A stretch of DNA of 64,000 nucleotides. Source: Squalus acanthias. Lineage: Eukaryota. Both the position numbers and the translations under genes were made by a program. Shown one piece after another: positions 2,823 to 60,077 of this stretch; position 1 is the stretch's first letter, and each line of letters begins with the position of its first letter. Below the pieces are notes generated by a model. The model was not told where the DNA came from, did no database searches, and worked only from the letters and a program-made list of their open reading frames with translations. Where the stretch lies: contig CM059431.1 in assembly GCA_030390025.1 (NCBI GenBank), positions 157,544,001 through 157,608,000 on the forward strand, in the 5' to 3' direction.

Positions 2823-3260
2823 TGGGGAGATCTTATGAGGAAAGATTGAGGGAGTTGGGGCTTTTCTCTTTAGAGCGGAGGAGGATGAGAGGCGACTTAA
2901 TAGAGGTTTATAAGATGATGAGGGGGATAGATAGAGTGGATGTTCAGAGACTATTTCCTCGGGTAGAGGCAGCTGTTACAAGGGGGCATAACTATAAGGT
3001 GCATGGGGGGAGATATAGAAGGGATGTCCGAGGTAGATTCTTTACTCAGAGAGTGGTTGGGGTGTGGAATGGACTGCCTGCTGTGATAGTGGAGTCGGAC
3101 ACTTTAGGAACTTTCAAGCGGTTATTGGATAAGCACATGGAGCACACCAGAGTGATAGAGAGTGTGATAGCTTGATCTTGGTCTCGGACAATGCTCGGCA
3201 CAACATCGAGGGCCGAAGGGCCTGTACTGTGCTGTACTGTTCTATGTTCTATGTTCTATG
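2823..3260 (+). mobile_element. 5'-truncated young CR1 LINE 3' end inserted in the satellite
   Basis: ORF 2822-3175 (SYEERLRELGLFSLERRRMRGDLIEVYK...FFTQRVV) is a CR1 ORF2 C-terminus and ends in a (TTCTATG)n tail. The peptide differs by about one residue from the 27537-27944 copy. Confidence 0.95.
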
Positions 3261-16382: not shown

Positions 16383-19300
16383 ATGGCAGAACAGGTTGTA
16401 GGCTTGGACTACAGTATGTGGAAGTTGTGTGGACAGCGAACCTGTCCAGAGGGAATATGTTTGCAGTAGATGTCTCCATCTCGAATCACTCCGGCTCAGG
16501 TTCATGGAGCTGAAGTGCGAGTTGTTGACACTTGGACATATAAGGGTGGGGGAAGAGTAACTGGACAGTTCCTTCAGACTTCGGTCATGCCTCGCAGAGA
16601 GGTGCAGATTCAGAACGGGGTTGATGTCACCGATAGTGTACAGAGTAAGGGAAAACCAGGTGAGATAGAGACCGAGGATCTGCAGAAACTGGTCCTACAC
16701 AACAGATGCAATGTACATGCGAACTGTGATAATTTCTAACTAAGGATAAAGACTGTGGGAAGGAAAGCAAATTGCTGACCAGGGCACCTTTGGAGCAGGA
16801 TGCTTTCCAAAGGAGGGAGGAGCATGAGCAGGAGGGGAAACGTAATATGGCAGTTGTAGGGGATTCAATAATTAGGGAGACAGATAGCTTCCTTTGTAAG
16901 CAGGATCGAGAGACCCACATGGTATGTTCCCTACATGATGCCAGGGTGAGGGACAGCGCGAAACGGTTTGCAAGATATTGAAGAAGGAGGTGGAGGATCC
17001 AGTCGTTGTTGTCGATGTAGGGAACAACACCATAGGAAAGAGTCGGCAGGAGGTCCTGTTTGGGAAGTACCAGGAACAAGGAGCTAAATTAAAATAAACA
17101 CGACCTCAAGCATTGTAATCTCTGGATTATTAACCGAACTACGTGTAACTTGGCGTAGCGATAAGCAGGATAGGGAGGTGAACACGTGACTGAAGAATGG
17201 TGTGGGAAGGAAAGGTTCCATTTCATGCAGTACTGGCGCCTGTACTTGGACAGGAAGGCACTGCACTGTTGGGATGGGCTCCACCTGAACCGTGCGAGGA
17301 TCAATGTCCTAGCGGAAATTATAAATAGGGTTGGTCACAAGGACTTTAAACTAATAGATGCGGTACTGGGGAGGTCTCAGATGGAAAAGGTAGTAAAAAT
17401 AATAATTCTTAAAACAAACGAAAAGGTAGATAGTAGAGGGATCGTCAGGCCTGGTGCTTAAGGCACTGCAGGTAAAGGGAAAACTAAAATATGTAATGTA
17501 TTAAAAGCAGGAGAGAGAAATAAGCAGCGTGTAAGTAAAACATTACAGCAGAAGGACAGATTATGGCCTGTGGCCCAAGAAAGCTTTCTTTATACAAACT
17601 CACGGTTAGTTAGGAACAAATTGAATGAATTGAAGGCGTCAATTTAACTTGGAGAGTATGACATGGTAGCCATTACTGAGACATGTCTATAAGACGGTCA
17701 GGACTGGGAACTTACTGTACCAGGTAATGAGGTCTGAAGGATCGAAAAGAGAAATGGTAGAGGGGAGGAGTAGTCTTAGCGATTAAGGGTGAAATCAATT
17801 CATTGATAAGCGAGGGTATAACAATAGGTAAGCAGGCAGTGGAGACTTTACAGTAAGAAATAATGAATGTAAAAACATTTGGCAGTTGTGTATATGGCCC
17901 CTGGTAGCAGCTGTTAACTTGTAGAATGTACAAATGCAAAACTTAGAGGAGCATATCACAAAGGCAGAGTGAGTTTAATAGGGAATTTTAACTTTCATGT
18001 CGATTATGATAAGCAGTCGAGCTCATGTCAGAGGGGTAGGGAATTTTTTGAACGTGTACGGAATGATTTTCTGCAACTATATGACCTTGAACCAACAAGC
18101 AGGTCATATTAGATTTAGAGATCAGTAATGAGCCAGTTTAGTTAACAGCGTAACTGTGCGTGAACATTTATCTAATAGCGGTCATAATATAATCGCAGTG
18201 TTTGAATGGGAGAAAAATGCAACAGCTGCTACGATTTTAGATTTATGTAAAGCTAACTTCAATGCGATGAGTCAGAGGCTGTCCACAGTAAACTGGGGAA
18301 ATCTGTTCATGGGTCAAACGACAGAAGATCAGTGAGAGGTGTTCAAAAATAATTAAATTTGTTTCAGAACCAGTATATACCGTTAAGGGGCAAGAGCTCT
18401 ATTTTCCAAAAGAAACTTCCATGAATGACAAAAGCAGTAAGGGCAACATAAAAATAAAAGGTAAAGCATAAAAAATGCTAAATCTACCACACATCCTGGC
18501 GAATGGGACAGATACAAAAACCAACAAAAGATGACAAAACAGACAGCAAAAGATACAAAAAAGGAATATGAAAAGAAACTTGCAAGAGATATCAAAATGA
18601 ACATTTTTTCACAATTATATTAGGAAAAAGAAGGTGGTCGGGAGAAATGTGGGTCCACTTCAAAAGTGATAACGATGATTTTGCAAATGGAATTAAGGAA
18701 ATGGCAGACATATGGAACAATTATTGCGCCAGTGCTTACAGTAGAGGAAAAGGATAACATGCCGAACTTTACAAGTCAATTAATATTGAATCAGGAATGG
18801 GGATTCAGCAAAATTAACGTTAGCAAAATAACAGTAGTTAAGACAATAATGGCACGAAGGAGTGACAAATCCACAGGAGCAGAGGTTTTCTATCCCAGGA
18901 TATTCAAGGAAGTCGGTGACAACATTATGGATGGCCTAACTACAATCTTCCAAAGTTCTCTCGATTCGGCAACCGTTCCTTTAGATTGGAAAATTGTGCA
19001 TGCAACTCCTCTATATAAAAAAGGTGAGAGCGGGAAACCAGCAAATTATAGACCAGTTAGATTCACATCTGTTCTAGGGAAATTAATAGAATCTATAACT
19101 AGAGTTACTGAACAACTTGAATTTTTTTAGCTGTTCAGTGAGCCAGCATGGATTTGTAAAGGGTAGTACATGCCTGACGAAACTGATTTAATTTTTTTAA
19201 GAGGTGACTAAAGTAGTGGACAGGGGAATGTCTAGGGATGTTATTGACAGAATCACAGAATCCCCACAGTGCAGATAGAGGCCATTTCGGCCCATCGAGC

Positions 19301-27464: not shown

Positions 27465-30400
27465 ACATAGAACATTACAGCACAGTACAGGCCCTTCGGC
27501 CCTCGATATTGTGCCGAGCATTGTCCGAGACCAAGATCAAGCTATCACACTCCCTATCACTCTGGTGTGCTCCATGTGCTTATCCAATAACCGCTTGAAA
27601 GTTCCTAAAGTGTCCGACTCCACTATCACAGCAGGCAGTCCATTCCACACCCCAACCACTCTCTGAGTAAAGAATCTACCTCGGACATCCCTTCTGTATC
27701 TCCCCCCATGCACCTTATAGTTATGCCCCCTTGTAACAGCTGCCTCTACCCGAGGAAATAGTCTCTGAACATCCACTCTATCTATCCCCCTCATCATCTT
27801 ATAAACCTCTATTAAGTCGCCTCTCATCCTCCTCCGCTCTAAAGAGAAAAGCCCCAACTCCCTCAATCTTTCCTCATAAGACCTCCCCCCCAAACCAGGC
27901 AGCATCCTGGTAAATCTCCTTTGCACTCTTTCCAATGCTTCCACGTCCTTCCTATAGTGAGGTGATCAGAACTGCACACAATATTCCAAATGTGGTCTCA
28001 CCAAGGTCCTGTACAGTTGCAGCATAACCTCACGGTTCTTAAACTCAAACCCTCTGTTAACAAACGCCAACACACCATAGGCCTTCTTTACTGCTCTATC
28101 CACTTGAGTGGCAAACTTCAGAGATCTGTGGATATGAACCCCGAGATCCCTCTGCTCCTCCACGTTCCTCAGAACCCTGCCGTTGACCCTGTAATGCTTA
28201 TTCAAATTTGCCCTACCAAAATGAATCACCTCGCACTTATCAGGGTTAAATTCCATCTGCCATTTTTCGGCCCAGCTCTGCATCCTATCAATGTCTCTTT
28301 GCAGCCTACAACTGCCCTCCACCTCATCCACTACTCCACCAATCTTGGTGTCATCAGCAAATTTACTGATCCACCCTTCAGTCCCCTCCTCCAAGTCATT
28401 GATAAAAATCACAGACAGCAGAGGACCCAGCACCGACCCCTGTGGCACACCGCTGGTAACTGGTCTCCAGTCCGAAAATGTTCCATCCACCACCACCCTC
28501 TGCCTTCTATGAGATAGCCAGTTACTTATCCAATCGGCCAAATTTCCCTCTATCACACAACTCCTTACATTCTTCATGAGACGACCATGGGGAACCTTAT
28601 CAAACGCCTTACTAAAATCCATGTATACGACATCAACTGCTCTACCTTCATCTACACACTTAGTTACCTCCTCAAAGAATTCAATCAAATTTGTTAGGCA
28701 AGACTTACCCTTCACGAATCCGTGTTGACTATCCCTGATTAAGTTGCCCCTTTCCAAATGGTCATAAATCCTATCCCTCAGGACCTTTTCCATTATCTTA
28801 CCAACCACCGAAGTAAGACTAACCGGCCTATAATTACCAGGGTCATTCCTATTTCCTTTCTTGAAGAGAGGAACAACATTCGCCACTCTCCAGTCCTCTG
28901 GCACCATCCCCGTGGACAGTGAGGACCCAAAGATCAAAGCCAGAGGCTCTGCAATCTCCTCCCTTGCCTCCCAAAGAATCCTAGGATATATCCCATCTGG
29001 CCCAGGGGACTTATCGACCCTCAGGTTCTTCAAAATTGCTAAAACATCTTCCCTCAGAACATCTACCACCTCCAGCCTATCCACCTTTATCACACTCTCA
29101 TCCTCAAGAACATGGCCCCTCTCCTCGGTGAACACTGACGAAAAGTATTCATTCATCACCTCTCCTATCTCTTCTGACTCCATGCACAAGTTCCCACTAC
29201 TGTCCTTGACCGGCCCTACCCTCACCCTGGTCATTCTTTTATTTCTCACATAAGAGTAAAAAGCCTTGGGGTTTTTCTTGATCCGACCCGCCAAGGACTT
29301 CTCATGCCCCCTCCTAGCTCTCCTAAGCTCTTTTTTTAGCTCATTCCTTGCTACCTTGTACCCCTCAATCGACCCAACTGAACCTTGTTTTCTCATCCTT
29401 ACATACGCTTCCTTTCTCCTCTTGACTAGACATTCAACCTCTTTGATGAACCATGGTTCTCTCACTCGGCCATTTCCTCCCTGCCTGACAGGGACATACC
29501 TATCAAGGACACGCAGTAATTGCTCCATGAAAAAGCTCCACTTTTCGTTTGTGCCTTTCCCTGATAGTTTCTGTTCCCATCTTATACTCCCTAATTCTTG
29601 CCTAATCGCATCATAATTACCCCTCCCCCAATTATAAACCCTGCCCTGCCGTATGGCCCTATCCCTCTCCATTGCAATAGTGAAAGTTACCGAATTGTGG
29701 TCACTATCTCCAAAGTGCTCTCCCACATACAAATCAAACACTTGGCCCGGTTCATTACCCAGTACCAAATCCAACGTGGCCCCACCTCTTGTCGGCCTAT
29801 CCACATATTGTGTCAGGAAACCCTCCTGCACACACTGTGCAAAAACTATCCCATCCGAACTGTTTGACCTATAAAGGTTCCAATCAATATTTGGAAAGTT
29901 GAAGTCACCCATGACAACTACTCTGTGACCTCCACACCTATTCATAATCTGCTTTGCAATTTCTTCCTCCACATCTTTATTACTATTTGGGGGCCTGTAG
30001 AAAACTCCTAACAACGTGACCGCTCCTTTCCTATTTCTAACTTCAGCCCATATTACCTCAGACGGCAGATCCCCCTCGAACTGCCTTTCTGCCGCTGTTA
30101 AACTATCCTTGATTAACAATGCTACTCCTCCACCTTTGTTACCAACTTCCCTACTCTTACTGAAACATCTATACCCCGGAACTTCCAACAACCATTCCTG
30201 TCCCTGTTCTAACCATGTCTCCGTAATGGCCACCACATCGTAGTCCCAAGTACCAATCCACGCTCCAAGTTCTCCTACCTTATTCCGGATGCTCCTTGCA
30301 TTGAAGTAGACACACTTCAAGCCATCTTCCTGTCTGCCGGTACATTCCTGCGACCTTGATACCCTCCTCAGTACCTCCCTACACTCACCACTGGCTCGTG

Positions 30401-30889
30401 GACTACAGCCCTTTTTCCCATCCCCCTGACAAATTAGTTTAAACCCCCCCCGAAGAGCCGTAGCAAATTTCCCTCCCAGGAAATTGGTGCCCCTCTGGTT
30501 CAGGTGCAAACCGTCCTGTTTGTACAGGTCCCACCTTCCCCAGAATGTGCTCCAATTATCCACATAACTGAAACCCTCCCCCCTACACCATCCCTGCAGC
30601 CACGTGTTTATCTGCACTCTCTCCCTGTTCCTCAACTCGCTAGCACGTGGCACCGGCAACAAACCAGAAATTACAACATGGTTTGTACTGGCTCTCAGCT
30701 TCCAACCTAGCTCCCTAAAATCCTGTTTTAAATCCCCGACCCTTCTCCTACCTATGTCGTTGGTACCGATGTGTACCACGACTTGTGATTGTTCCCCTTC
30801 CCCTTTGAGGATTCTGAAAACACGGTCCTAGACGTCACGGACCCTGGTACCCGGGAGGCAACATACCATCCGTGAGTCTCTTTTGCTGC
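27465..30889 (-). mobile_element. Young, nearly intact CR1 LINE (5'-truncated within ORF1)
   Basis: 937-codon open frame 30779-27966 plus continuation to 27537; near-identical to the 2823-3260 insertion. Confidence 0.97.
27537..30779 (-). pseudogene. CR1 ORF1 (SGNH esterase C-terminal part) fused in frame to ORF2 (APE endonuclease + RT); single TGA at 27966-27968
   Basis: HIGTND and DGLHLN (esterase); YFNARS, AITETW, GDFN, LDLVL, SDH (APE); [18 protein letters not shown] (RT). CVQF*SPHY shows a TGG>TGA change. The track start is GTG, and a further TAG lies upstream at about 30828-30830. Confidence 0.93.
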
Positions 30890-31854
30890 CATGTGGTTTT
30901 CGTGCCTGTAGCTCACTTACCTTGTTTACTACGCTTCGTGCATTCACATACATTCACTGTAAACCCATCTTAGAACATCCTGTATTCCCTCTTTGTTGGA
31001 CCCCACTATACCTTACTATTTCTTACTTTAGTGCTCTCTGCCTCTCCCAATCCTTTGAGCACTTTATTTCACCTTTCTAACGTAACATCCTGGTGCCCAT
31101 CCATTTGCCAAATTAATTTAAACCCTCCCCAACAGCATCAGCAAACCCGGAGCTCGAGCTCCTCCAGCTGACGACACCTCCTGCACCCGTGGTTGTCCAG
31201 AACACGGGAAGCATCCTGGATTTCCCACAAGGCACAGCATGTGCACTCCGTGGGACTGAGTTACACTGCCATGCCTCTAGTTTATAGGCTATTAACTAGC
31301 TTTACAGAAATTAAGATTATTAATATAATAGTATTAACAGTTACTAATTTAGTAAAGTATTAACAGTTACCCATCTATACGTTTCTGTTTTATCTCTAAA
31401 CAGCTTTTTAAAACTTGCACCTTGAGGAGCAAGAAAAAACATTTTTTTAAACTACGTAACCTTTACCAACCAATCAGTTGCCAGGTGTCCTGTGACGTCC
31501 TTGTGGTTTCTCTCTCTCTCCCTTTCTCTGCGCTCAATCTCCACCCAGTACCGCTCTCGCTGCAGCTGCCGCCGGTGAGTCTGGACGGCTTCCTCTCTCC
31601 CCACTCTTTAACTCCTCGGACTCCGCGCTCAGTCTTCACCCAGGGCCGCTCTCGCTGCTGATGCTACCGGTGAGTCCAGCCCACTTGAGATAGAGACCAA
31701 TATTATAATAGCCTTTGTTATTAAATTTCTATCTGTCTACTTTCTTTCAGTGATTTCTGTAATTGCACACCTACATTTCTCTGCTCCTCCACTGTTCCTA
31801 ACTTCTCGCCATTTAGCAATCACTCTGATCTATCTTTCTTATTTATTTCAGTAT

Positions 31855-46830: not shown

Positions 46831-47030
46831 GGTCCTGCACTCATCTCCTGATGAACAATCAGCGGAAATATTTTTCACGATTTTAGAATTCACAAATTGA
46901 TGGCCTCGTTTCTCGATTTCGTATCAGCGCTGCAATGGAATTATTTTGAATCCACATGTTTCTGTTCTGTTCTAATATACCCTGCTATAACCTGAAATTA
47001 TTGTTTTTTGCAGGTAACACGTTGCCTGAG

Positions 47031-47526
47031 ATGGGGCACTCATCAAGTAAACAAAGCGGTGCAAGAAAACAACGCCAGATTCAAGGCCCTGCTCCTGGGG
47101 AAGATGCTCAGGCCCCAGGAACCTGTACAAGTGAAGAGAGTCTGATTCAAGGCCCTGCTCCTGGGGAAGATGCTCAGGCCCCAGGAACCTGTACAAGTGA
47201 GCAGAGTCAGATTCAAGGCCCTGCTCCTGGGGAAGATGCTCAGGCCCCAGGAACCTGTACAAGTGAGCAGAATCAGATTCAAGGCCCTGCTCCTGGGGAA
47301 GGTGATCAGTCCCCAGGAACCGGTACAAGTGAGCAGAGTCAGATTCAAGGCCCTGCTCCTGGGGAAGGTGATCAGTCCCCAGGAACCGGTACAAGTGAAC
47401 AGAATCAGATTCAAGGCCCTGCTCCTGGGGAAGGTGATCAGGCCCCTGGAAACGGTACAAGTGAAGTGACTCCTTCCCCCGGAGGTTTATTAAATATGAA
47501 TACTACAAACTTTGACCAAAAAACAG
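47031..47526 (+). CDS. Putative first coding exon (exon 47014-47526): MGHSSSK + six 22-aa repeats; possibly N-terminus of a shark NLR-type protein
   Basis: Acceptor TTGTTTTTTGCAG| at 47013, Kozak GAGATGG at 47031, open frame, donor ACAG|GTTAGT in phase 1, which joins in frame to 55804. Confidence 0.65.
47076..47465 (+). repeat. 66-bp coding tandem repeat x6 (QIQGPAPGE[DA/GD]Q[A/S]PGT[C/G]TSEQ[S/N])
   Basis: ATTCAAGGCC recurs at 47079, 47145, 47211, 47277, 47343 and 47409 with no indels. Confidence 0.97.
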
Positions 47527-47644
47527 GTTAGTAGAATGAAACTCACTTCAAATGAAACATCCCTGAACATTTCAAACACTACAACAAAACTCTGTCCATT
47601 CACTTACTGACCTGCAAAAAAATAAATAATATAGTTTAAAATAT

Positions 47645-48479: not shown

Positions 48480-50712
48480 TCTCGTTCAAGGGCTGGGTCA
48501 GTGGTGTTTCGGTGTTGGGCTGGATCAGTGTGGTTTCGGTGTAAGTCCGAGTCAGTAGTGTGTCGGTCAAGGGCTGTGTCTTTGGTGTGTCGGTGTGGGG
48601 CTGGGTCAGTAGGGTGGCAGTGTAGGGCTGGGTCAGAAGGGTGTCGGTGAGGGTCTGGGTCAGTGGGGTTTCGGTGTTGGGCTGGGTCAGTGGGGTGTCG
48701 GTGTAGTGGTGGGTCAGTGGAGTGTCGGTGAGGGGCTGGGTCAGTAGGGTGTCAGTTTAGGCCTGGATCAGTGGGGTTTAGGTGTAGCGGTAGGTCAGTG
48801 GGGTGCCGGTGTTGGGGTGGGTCAGTGGGGTTTCGGTGTAGGGGTGTGTCAGTGGGGTTTCGGTGTAGGTGTGGGTCAGTGTGGTGCCGGTGTTGTGCTG
48901 TGTCAGTGGGGTGTCAGTGTAGGGGTGGGTCAGTGGGGTGCCGGTGTTGGGGTTGGGTCAGTGGGGTGTCGGTGTAGGGCTGGGTCAGTGTGGTGTCGTT
49001 GTAGGGGTGGGTCAGTGGGGTGCCGGTGTTGGGCTGGGGAAGTGGGGTGTCGGTGTATGGGTCGGTCAGTGGGGTGTCGGTGTTGGGCTGGTTCAGTGGG
49101 GTGTCTTTGTAGGGGTGGGTCAGTATGTTGTTTATGTAGGGCTCGATCAGTTGGGTGTCGTTGTAGGGCTGGGTCTGTAGGGTGTCAGTGTCGTGCTGGG
49201 TCAGTAGGGTGTCAGTGTCGTGCTGGGTCAGTAGGGTGTCAGTGTAGCGCTGGGTCCGTGTGGTGCTGGTGTAGGGCTGGTACCAGTAGGGTGTCAGTGT
49301 CGTGCTGTGTCAGTAGGGTGTCAGTGTCGGGCTGGGTCCGTGTGGTGCTGATGTAGGGCTGGGTCAGTAAGGCGTCACTGTCGTGCTGGTTCAGTAGGGT
49401 GGCAGTGTATGGCTGGGCCAGTAGGGTCTCAGTGTAGGGCTGGGTCAGTAGGGTGTAGGTGTAGCGCTGGATCAGCTGGGTGTCTGTGTAGGGCTGGGTC
49501 AGTAGGGTGTCGATGTGGGGCTGGATCAGTGGTGTGTCGGTGTAGGGCTGGGTCAGTGGTGTTTCGGTGTAGGGCTGGGTCAGTAGGGTGTCGTTTTCGG
49601 GCTTGGTCAGTAGGGTGTCGATGTAGGGCTGGGTCAGTAGGGTGTCGATGTGGGGCTGGGTCAGTAGGGTGTCAGTGTAGCGCTTGGTCGGTGTGGTGCT
49701 GGTGTAGGGCTGGGTCCGTGTGCTGTGGGTTTGGGGCTGGGTCAGTAGGGTGTCGATGTGGGGCTGGGTCAGTAGGGTGTCAGTGCAGCGCTGGATCAGT
49801 CGGGTGTCGATGTAGGGCTGGGTCGGTAGGGTTTCGGTGTAGGGCTAGTTAAGTAGGGTGTCAGTGTAGCGCTGGGTTTGTCGTGTGTCGATGTAGGGCT
49901 GGATCAGTGGCGTGTCGATGTAGGGCTGGGTCAGTATGGTTTTGGTATAGTGCTGGGTCAGTAGAGATTCAGTGTAGCGCTGGATCAGTGTGGTGTTGTT
50001 GTAGGGCTGGGTCCGTGTGGTGTAGTTGTCTGGCTGGGTCCGCGTGGTGTTGGTGTAGGGCTCGGTCAGTAGTCTGTCGTTGTAGGGCTGGATAAGTGGC
50101 GTGTCGATGAGGGCTGTGTTAGTATGGTGTTGGTATAGGACTGGGTCAGTCGGGTGTCAGTGTAGTGTTAGATCAGTGGGATGTCGTTGTAGGGCTGGGT
50201 GGTAGGCTGTCGGTGTGGGACTGGGTCAATAGAGTGTAAGTGTAGCGTTGGGTCAGTGGGGTGTTGGTGTAGGGCTGGGTCCGTGTGGTGCTTGTGTAGG
50301 GCTTGGTCCGTGTGGTGTGGGTGTGGGGCTGGGTCAGTAGGCTGTCAGTGTAGGGCTGGGTCCGTGTGGTACTGGTGTAGGGCTGGGTCAGTGGGGTGTG
50401 GGTGTAGGGCTGGGTCAGTCGGCTGTCAGTTTAGGGCTGCATCAGTGGGGTGTGGGTGTAGGGCTGGGTCAGTAGGCTGTCAGTGTAGGCTGGGTCCGTG
50501 TGGTGCTGGTGTAGGGCTGGGTCAGTGGGGTGTGGGTGTAGGGCTGGGTCAGTAGGCTGTCAGTGTAGGGCTGGGTCAGTGGGGTGTGGGTGTAGGGCTG
50601 GGTCAGTAGGCTGTCAGTGTAGGGCTGGGTCAGTGGAGTGTGGTTGTAGGGCTGGGTCAGTGGGGTGGCGGTGTAGGGCTGGATCAGTAGGGTGTTGTTG
50701 CAGGGCTGGGGT
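48480..50712. repeat. 27-bp G-rich minisatellite (GGGCTGGGTCAGT[A/G]GGGTGTCGGTGTA)
   Basis: About 80 tandem units; gives spurious CRCRAGSVG ORFs. Confidence 0.96.
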
Positions 50713-59877: not shown

Positions 59878-60077
59878 NNNNNNNNNNNNNNNNNNNNNNN
59901 NNNNNNNNNNNNNNNNNNNNNNNNNNNNNNNNNNNNNNNNNNNNNNNNNNNNNNNNNNNNNNNNNNNNNNNNNNNNNNNNNNNNNNNNNNNNNNNNNNNN
60001 NNNNNNNNNNNNNNNNNNNNNNNNNNNNNNNNNNNNNNNNNNNNNNNNNNNNNNNNNNNNNNNNNNNNNNNNNNNNN
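59878..60077. other. Assembly gap (200 N)
   Basis: Run of exactly 200 N, likely a placeholder size. Confidence 0.99.

Follow-up and report, generated by a model that had tools for sequence, protein, structure and literature searches.

The site at which coronaviruses shift from ORF1a to ORF1b is U_UUA_AAC. In the available sections of PMC5009743, this heptamer is listed among the most shift-prone ones, and two further cases are described there: the PRRSV nsp2 frameshift, which is trans-activated by nsp1-beta and PCBP and which, in place of a structure, has a short linear motif located 11 nt 3' of its site, and a frameshift in the gag gene of HeT-A. Other routes to a downstream reading frame are also documented. 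The same sections describe the initiation of L1 ORF2 as AUG-independent, translational coupling through UAAUG has been described for SART1 (PMC3894237, available portion), and reinitiation at non-AUG codons is covered in the accessible part of PMC3542737. How LINEs translate their ORF2 is still called an open question in the former of these two texts (PMC3894237). CR1, the dominant retrotransposon of most vertebrates according to the part of PMC13343379 at hand, has to our knowledge not been placed among these systems: the term 'frameshift' does not occur in the available portions of PMC4120745, PMC13343379, PMC3905857 and PMC3894237, 'CR1' does not occur in those of PMC5009743, and our literature search found no report of frameshifting in CR1, while an earlier mention in papers from 1997 to 2006 or in Repbase is possible. 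We regard the junction between ORF1 and ORF2 described here as a probable -1 frameshift site; its kind is known, but it resides in a class of elements for which we found no such report.

The window, i.e. the whole 64,000-nt stretch of Squalus acanthias DNA analysed, harbors a young copy of this element together with the junctions of two decayed copies (Table 1). The young copy contains a single ORF of 953 aa (30827-27966, minus strand) that spans the esterase, APE and RT domains and is closed by a premature TGA at 27968-27966. Intact ORF1 of the family comprises 308 aa with a Cys cluster (zinc finger) at the N-terminus, and its closest named homologues are found in sharks and rays, those further off in frogs, an eel, turtles and birds, which points to a cartilaginous fish as the probable host. 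In the near-intact copy L250, ORF2 is open for 966 codons in the -1 frame from the heptamer, and the 3' UTR is followed by (GTTCTAT)n short tandem repeats with no poly(A). A 3' end made up of short tandem repeats and not of poly(A) marks CR1. An SGNH esterase ORF1 with an N-terminal zinc finger and an ORF2 with APE and RT make up the architecture of esterase-type CR1, and, judged by the homology of ORF1 to bird and turtle proteins and by this domain layout, the element is an esterase-type CR1. The 5' UTR of L250 holds five head-to-tail repeats of about 76 nt each (about 780-1160), and a second short 3' fragment of the young family, 99% identical, lies at 2824-3260 of the window (plus strand). 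The junction region of another locus, L019:1450-2050, has a word share of 0.96-1.00 in runs labelled as six organisms (A, B, E, F, G and H), which would fit closely related organisms or else a family that has spread very recently. Elsewhere in the window, long open frames built of tandem repeats (46950-47531 and 48748-49852) are probably minisatellites, and an assembly gap of 200 N is located at 59878-60077.

Table 1. Features of CR1 copies and their ORF1/ORF2 junctions in the window.
Feature	Position	Strand	Remarks
5'-truncated young CR1 LINE copy (esterase end, APE, RT, 3' UTR)	27465..30891	-	99.07% identity over 3427 nt to the near-intact copy L250
ORF1 SGNH/GDSL esterase, C-terminal part	30489..30782	-	PF13472, E 2.8e-10, residues 16-113 of the 953-aa ORF
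G8 run before the heptamer	30444..30451	-	family form G7; the extra G fuses ORF1 and ORF2 here
Slippery heptamer T_TTA_AAC	30437..30443	-	X_XXY_YYZ in ORF1 phase of G7 copies; 11/11 lineages
ORF1 stop TAA, adjoining the heptamer	30434..30436	-	TAA or TAG is the commonest stop in 11/11 lineages
ORF2-frame start: 38-codon linker, CTA to endonuclease, no AUG	30324..30437	-	
G-rich motif GGGGGATGGG	30417..30426	-	10 nt past the heptamer; candidate stimulator
APE endonuclease	29697..30308	-	PF03372, E 1e-21; first ORF2 Met (29945-29943) inside
Reverse transcriptase	28137..28856	-	PF00078, E 3e-35
Heptamer and stop, old RTLN-lineage copy	17345..17354	+	esterase frame broken
Decayed heptamer (TTTAAAT) and stop	31113..31122	-	internally deleted CR1 fragment

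A first-pass annotation of the window had placed the junction motif correctly, both in letters and in position (TTTAAACTAA at 30443-30434 on the minus strand and at 17345-17354 on the plus strand, TTTAAATTAA at 31122-31113 on the minus strand). Its reading of the young copy is confirmed as well: the ORF2 frame runs open across TTT AAA CTA, and its first Met follows 164 codons past CTA (166 past TTT), beyond the YFNARS and ETW motifs. It had also stated that the three window copies end the esterase in ..LN*. The motifs are indeed present, and the family does end in this way, but none of the three copies ends an intact esterase frame in LN*. In the young copy, the esterase is in one frame with FKL and the heptamer is out of phase, because G8 and not G7 precedes TTTAAAC. 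The copy at 17345 reads ..KDFKL in a broken esterase frame, while its relatives end in ..RTLN*, and the copy at 31122 has an internal deletion and lacks the esterase; the AAT state of its heptamer is a minority one, occurring in 3 of 94 copies of the EGLN/GGLN-type lineage which it resembles. The annotation is, thus, right about the family though its individual window copies do not show the LN* ending. In lineages ending in ..GLN*, a second heptamer, G_GGT_TTA, overlaps T_TTA_AAC one codon upstream (L250:2278-2287; window 30446-30437, minus strand), so that tandem slippery sites are present.

Conservation of the site was determined on esterase ends which had been gathered independently of the heptamer with a piece of the window, the Pfam family PF13472 (110 of 150 matches), distant proteins and 29 metagenome loci. 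From 240 ends, 162 were kept; the 78 that were dropped comprise 45 with an early end, 23 short ones, 7 identical ones and 3 located at an edge. Based on esterase DNA, the retained copies fall into 11 lineages, five of them in this genome (22-43% apart) and six bird-like (52-60% from those). DNA from outside this genome is limited to seven bird-like copies, and frogs, fish, turtles and named birds are represented by protein ends only. In each of the 11 lineages, TTTAAAC with TAA or TAG after it is the state seen most often; TTTAAAC is present in 142 of the 162 copies, a count that refers to related lineages and not to independent draws, with a filter that favours LN ends and a profile built from LN-type proteins. 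Among 41 distinct copies collected later, 39 of which belong to a twelfth lineage, the heptamer occurs in 40. The printed branch lengths of the esterase tree total about 4 changes per column. Of all invariant runs in the 396 positions compared across the 11 lineages, the heptamer is the longest.

All 11 lineages share ten invariant residues, namely a Trp, seven that use two to five codons, and, at the end, Leu and Asn, encoded by TTA and AAC in 11 of 11 lineages. Elsewhere, TTA provides 22 of the 126 Leu codons and AAC 25 of the 51 Asn codons. The residue preceding the Leu may be G, A, T, D, C or S, and its codon always ends in T. Hence, in the synonymous-codon comparison which the first-pass annotation had proposed, Leu-Asn is fixed as TTA AAC while the seven other degenerate invariant residues vary synonymously, and together with the lineage comparison this places the conservation of the motif above chance. 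The outcome supports the frameshift reading given in that annotation. Mismatch within lineages is also lower at the heptamer (2-3% versus 5-7%), a figure which we set aside because the filter favours LN ends. At the protein level, an exact LN C-terminus is found in 59 of 71 and 61 of 66 ORF1 homologues that reach the end of the profile (two sets), among them proteins of named sharks, rays, frogs, an eel, turtles and birds, and in 122 of 123 LN-ending proteins the preceding residue can be encoded by NNT. Two database entries, P0007 (labelled Pseudomonas aeruginosa, 74% identical, ending in EGLN) and P0080 (labelled Protopolystoma xenopodis, with a frog-like ORF1), look like contamination by vertebrate CR1 ORF1. 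The slippery site at the CR1 ORF1/ORF2 junction is real, in phase and deeply conserved at the nucleotide level.

Downstream of the ORF1 stop, the linker to the APE domain measures 89-257 nt among open copies. Of 141 copies, 101 have it in the -1 phase, and 90 keep it open in the APE frame, compared to 7 and 9 in the other frames. The -1 phase and the open linker make it likely that translation passes into the ORF2 frame at the junction. The downstream G-run of the RALN and RTLN lineages (L171-L200 and L041-L060) is long and highly variable in length, and the phase of ORF2 is therefore scrambled in many of their genomic copies. Within the region of overlap, a Met is found in none of 84 open copies. 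A Met ahead of APE is absent in all 8 copies of the window's family (none before codon 164, which lies inside APE) and occurs in one of 9 copies of lineage 1. The picture differs in other lineages: an in-frame AUG follows the stop, as UAAUG, in 4 of 6 copies of lineage 2 and 4 of 4 of lineage 4, a Met is located at codon 3 (UAG-nn-AUG) in three of five bird-like copies and at linker codon 18 in the twelfth lineage, and 43 of 52 copies of lineage 5 have a Met in the linker or among the first APE residues. No AUG is present within the first six codons past the stop in lineages 1, 3 and 5, and none is conserved at the stop across lineages. The earlier conclusion that AUG initiation cannot yield an intact endonuclease accordingly holds for the window's family, but not for lineages 2, 4 and 5 and several bird-like copies, in which an in-frame AUG lies upstream of APE, an outcome which the annotation itself had named as speaking against its view; the argument from the missing AUG is family-specific for this reason.

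Based on these sequence comparisons, we consider it probable that esterase-type vertebrate CR1 elements express ORF2 by -1 programmed ribosomal frameshifting, with a predicted ORF1-ORF2 fusion as the product. The tRNA-Leu and tRNA-Asn, paired with UUA AAC, would move back by one base onto UUU AAA, and translation would resume at CUA. Most ribosomes would stop at the end of ORF1, and a minority would give rise to a fusion of about 1270 residues (308 + 966 in L250), consisting of zinc finger, esterase, linker, APE and RT. Tandem slippage of the two tRNAs would yield a predicted transframe tryptic peptide, GGLNLICQGDGK, in a product of about 140 kDa.

The alternative that fares best is termination followed by reinitiation, in which translation restarts in the -1 frame at or just past the ORF1 stop, at UAAUG or at a non-AUG codon, and the heptamer and the G-run form part of the signal. 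It has to be kept as a rival because several lineages possess an AUG before the endonuclease, in some as UAAUG (lineages 2 and 4, besides the UAG-nn-AUG of the bird-like copies). An ORF2 frame that opens right at the stop and an open linker would be expected equally well. There are precedents in the UAAUG coupling of SART1 (PMC3894237), in non-AUG reinitiation (PMC3542737) and in L1 (PMC5009743), as far as the available parts of these texts describe them, and since initiation of L1 ORF2 is AUG-independent in the last of these, a missing AUG does not exclude reinitiation. In addition, UGGGA, which in TURBS-type reinitiation is expected 40-90 nt ahead of the stop, is present in each of the five lineages of this genome at a distance of 41-96 nt (at -96, -81, -55 or -41). 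However, UGGGA has no fixed position and is missing from six of the seven bird-like copies. It is the heptamer and not the AUG that is conserved, the AUG-bearing forms being scattered on the tree among AUG-less ones, and reinitiation does not account for the fact that the invariant 7-mer is a canonical X_XXY_YYZ in the phase of ORF1. We therefore regard reinitiation as an unlikely explanation of the junction, while lineages with UAAUG may use both frameshifting and reinitiation.

It might also be speculated that the conserved letters act in RNA processing or at the DNA level, as a weak poly(A) signal (UUUAAA) that has a G-rich element downstream, as an internal TATA-like promoter, or as a branch point with a 3' splice site (CUAAY..YAG|G). 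TTTAAA is a minor poly(A) hexamer, and CTAAC or CTAAT followed by CAG|G is found in lineages 3, 4 and 5. Yet a pyrimidine tract is absent, only some 8 nt would separate the branch point from the AG, and an AG of this kind is missing from lineage 1. Furthermore, the main contigs of runs X1 and X5, which may be RNA, span the junction without a gap or joint, and neither the flanking C nor the codon phase nor the open linker would be explained. A role of this kind appears very unlikely.

A still lower probability is given to the proposal that ORF2 is made from natively fused copies or after polymerase slippage which adds one base in the G-run. The young window copy is fused in this manner, and the gene models of the database proteins P0039, P0095 and P0201 run from the esterase through GFKL and onward as well. 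Exact genome matches at the junction of the young family, however, number 1078 for G7 and 45 for G8, and a search with a gapped pattern gave 1209 junctions in all. Each of 16 G7 copies read ends ORF1 in ..RGGLN* (T TTA AAC TAA) with ORF2 in the -1 frame, and each of 14 G8 copies fetched is a native ORF1-ORF2 fusion. These 14 share no other variant over about 1.9 kb and, thus, appear to be independent homopolymer slips or assembly errors; a sub-lineage derived from a fused G8 master was ruled out on the same ground. A natively fused ORF had been named beforehand as an outcome that would speak against frameshifting; what was found is a 4% minority of fused copies with no common marker. Moreover, the heptamer is not preceded by a G-run in the RALN, RTLN, EDLN and bird-like lineages, and a search for longer homologues returned only two matches, which is weak evidence against fusion. 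Least credible of all is a constraint on the protein only, i.e. selection of the C-terminal Leu-Asn (or of F-K-L in the ORF2 frame) with codons fixed by overlap or chance, since, although LN is invariant in the protein alignment and overlapping frames do constrain codons, TTA and AAC make up only part of the Leu and Asn codons elsewhere, and FKL can be translated only upon entry into the -1 frame further upstream, in an overlap that has no Met.

Frameshifting is commonly stimulated from downstream, and a G-rich tract at a typical spacer had been pointed out in the window. The G-run itself is conserved: G is the commonest base at +11 to +15 in 11 of 11 lineages, with a G4 in the twelfth. A run of at least four G starts 10 nt past the heptamer in 66 of 82 copies of lineage 5, in 8 of 8 and 4 of 4 copies of two further groups and in 5 of the 7 bird-like copies; the G-run of lineages 1 and 2 mostly begins 7-10 nt past the heptamer. 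The usual spacer between heptamer and stimulator is 5-9 nt, and the spacer of about 10 nt seen here is above that range. Folding of the downstream region, which had likewise been suggested, did not reveal a conserved hairpin: 14 natural representatives, each folded at two lengths, gave a z of -2 or lower only twice in 28 folds. A G-quadruplex is predicted in 4 of the 14 representatives, the window's family not being among them, and the Rfam search returned no frameshift element, only two unrelated matches below threshold. Among 20 longer loci, no long-range partner of the G-motif was found at a position common to them. Some 650 nt ahead of the ORF1 stop, lineages 2-5 (L250-L265) carry a C-rich patch with complementarity to the motif; it was rejected as a partner, since it coincides with a conserved PLSNR-type protein motif. 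GGG accounts for 35-38% of the Gly codons in ORF2, and the G-run may therefore be constrained as RNA, but selection on the peptide may also be at work. In runs X12 and X17, related contigs cease to match at L019:1785, just past the G-motif.

As a more speculative addition to the frameshift model, a pause caused by the adjacent stop codon and a linear G-rich motif, rather than a hairpin or pseudoknot, might promote slippage, the motif acting via a bound protein or a G-quadruplex. A fuller version of this idea, which we put forward as a tentative and rather doubtful one, is a Gag-Pol-like fusion made by -1 frameshifting in CR1, the dominant LINE of non-mammalian vertebrates, and as old as the jawed vertebrates, produced at the invariant U_UUA_AAC-stop and stimulated not by RNA structure but by a protein-bound G-rich motif 11 nt downstream, possibly bound by ORF1p. 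If ORF1p indeed bound the motif, feedback would set the ratio of ORF1 to ORF2, and the reverse transcriptase would be tethered to the ORF1 particle. The frameshift model as such predicts that CR1 reverse transcriptase is made as a fusion to ORF1, as in retroviruses and unlike L1. It would correct annotations of CR1 ORF2 in which an internal Met is taken as the start and the endonuclease is lost, and it may hint at a cellular genome that carries a frameshift stimulator free of structure. Owing to the conserved shift site, translation of CR1 ORF2 can be tested with a 60-nt reporter.

In its overall layout, the element matches subgroup 7 of CR1 with a type IV esterase ORF1, as far as it is described in the available text of PMC4120745, namely in the ORF1 with zinc finger and esterase, the ORF2 with APE and RT, the short tandem repeats at the 3' end and the homologues in birds and turtles. 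The junction resembles the gag-pol sites of retroviruses and LTR retrotransposons, as characterized in the accessible sections of PMC5009743, and that of coronavirus ORF1a/1b, in that an in-phase X_XXY_YYZ ends the upstream (structural) ORF, the polymerase ORF lies in the -1 frame and a fusion is predicted. In contrast to these sites, the one in CR1 belongs to a non-LTR element, the stop codon adjoins the heptamer, and a G-run at a 10-nt spacer is present where no conserved hairpin was found. The G-run begins at +11, similar to the spacing of the PRRSV motif; this is no more than an analogy, and the CR1 motif is G-rich where that of PRRSV is C-rich. With SART1 and L1, CR1 shares a bicistronic non-LTR RNA and, in two of the lineages studied here, the UAAUG. 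SART1 and L1 give rise to a free ORF2 protein, whereas in CR1 the AUG is dispensable across lineages and the heptamer is fixed.
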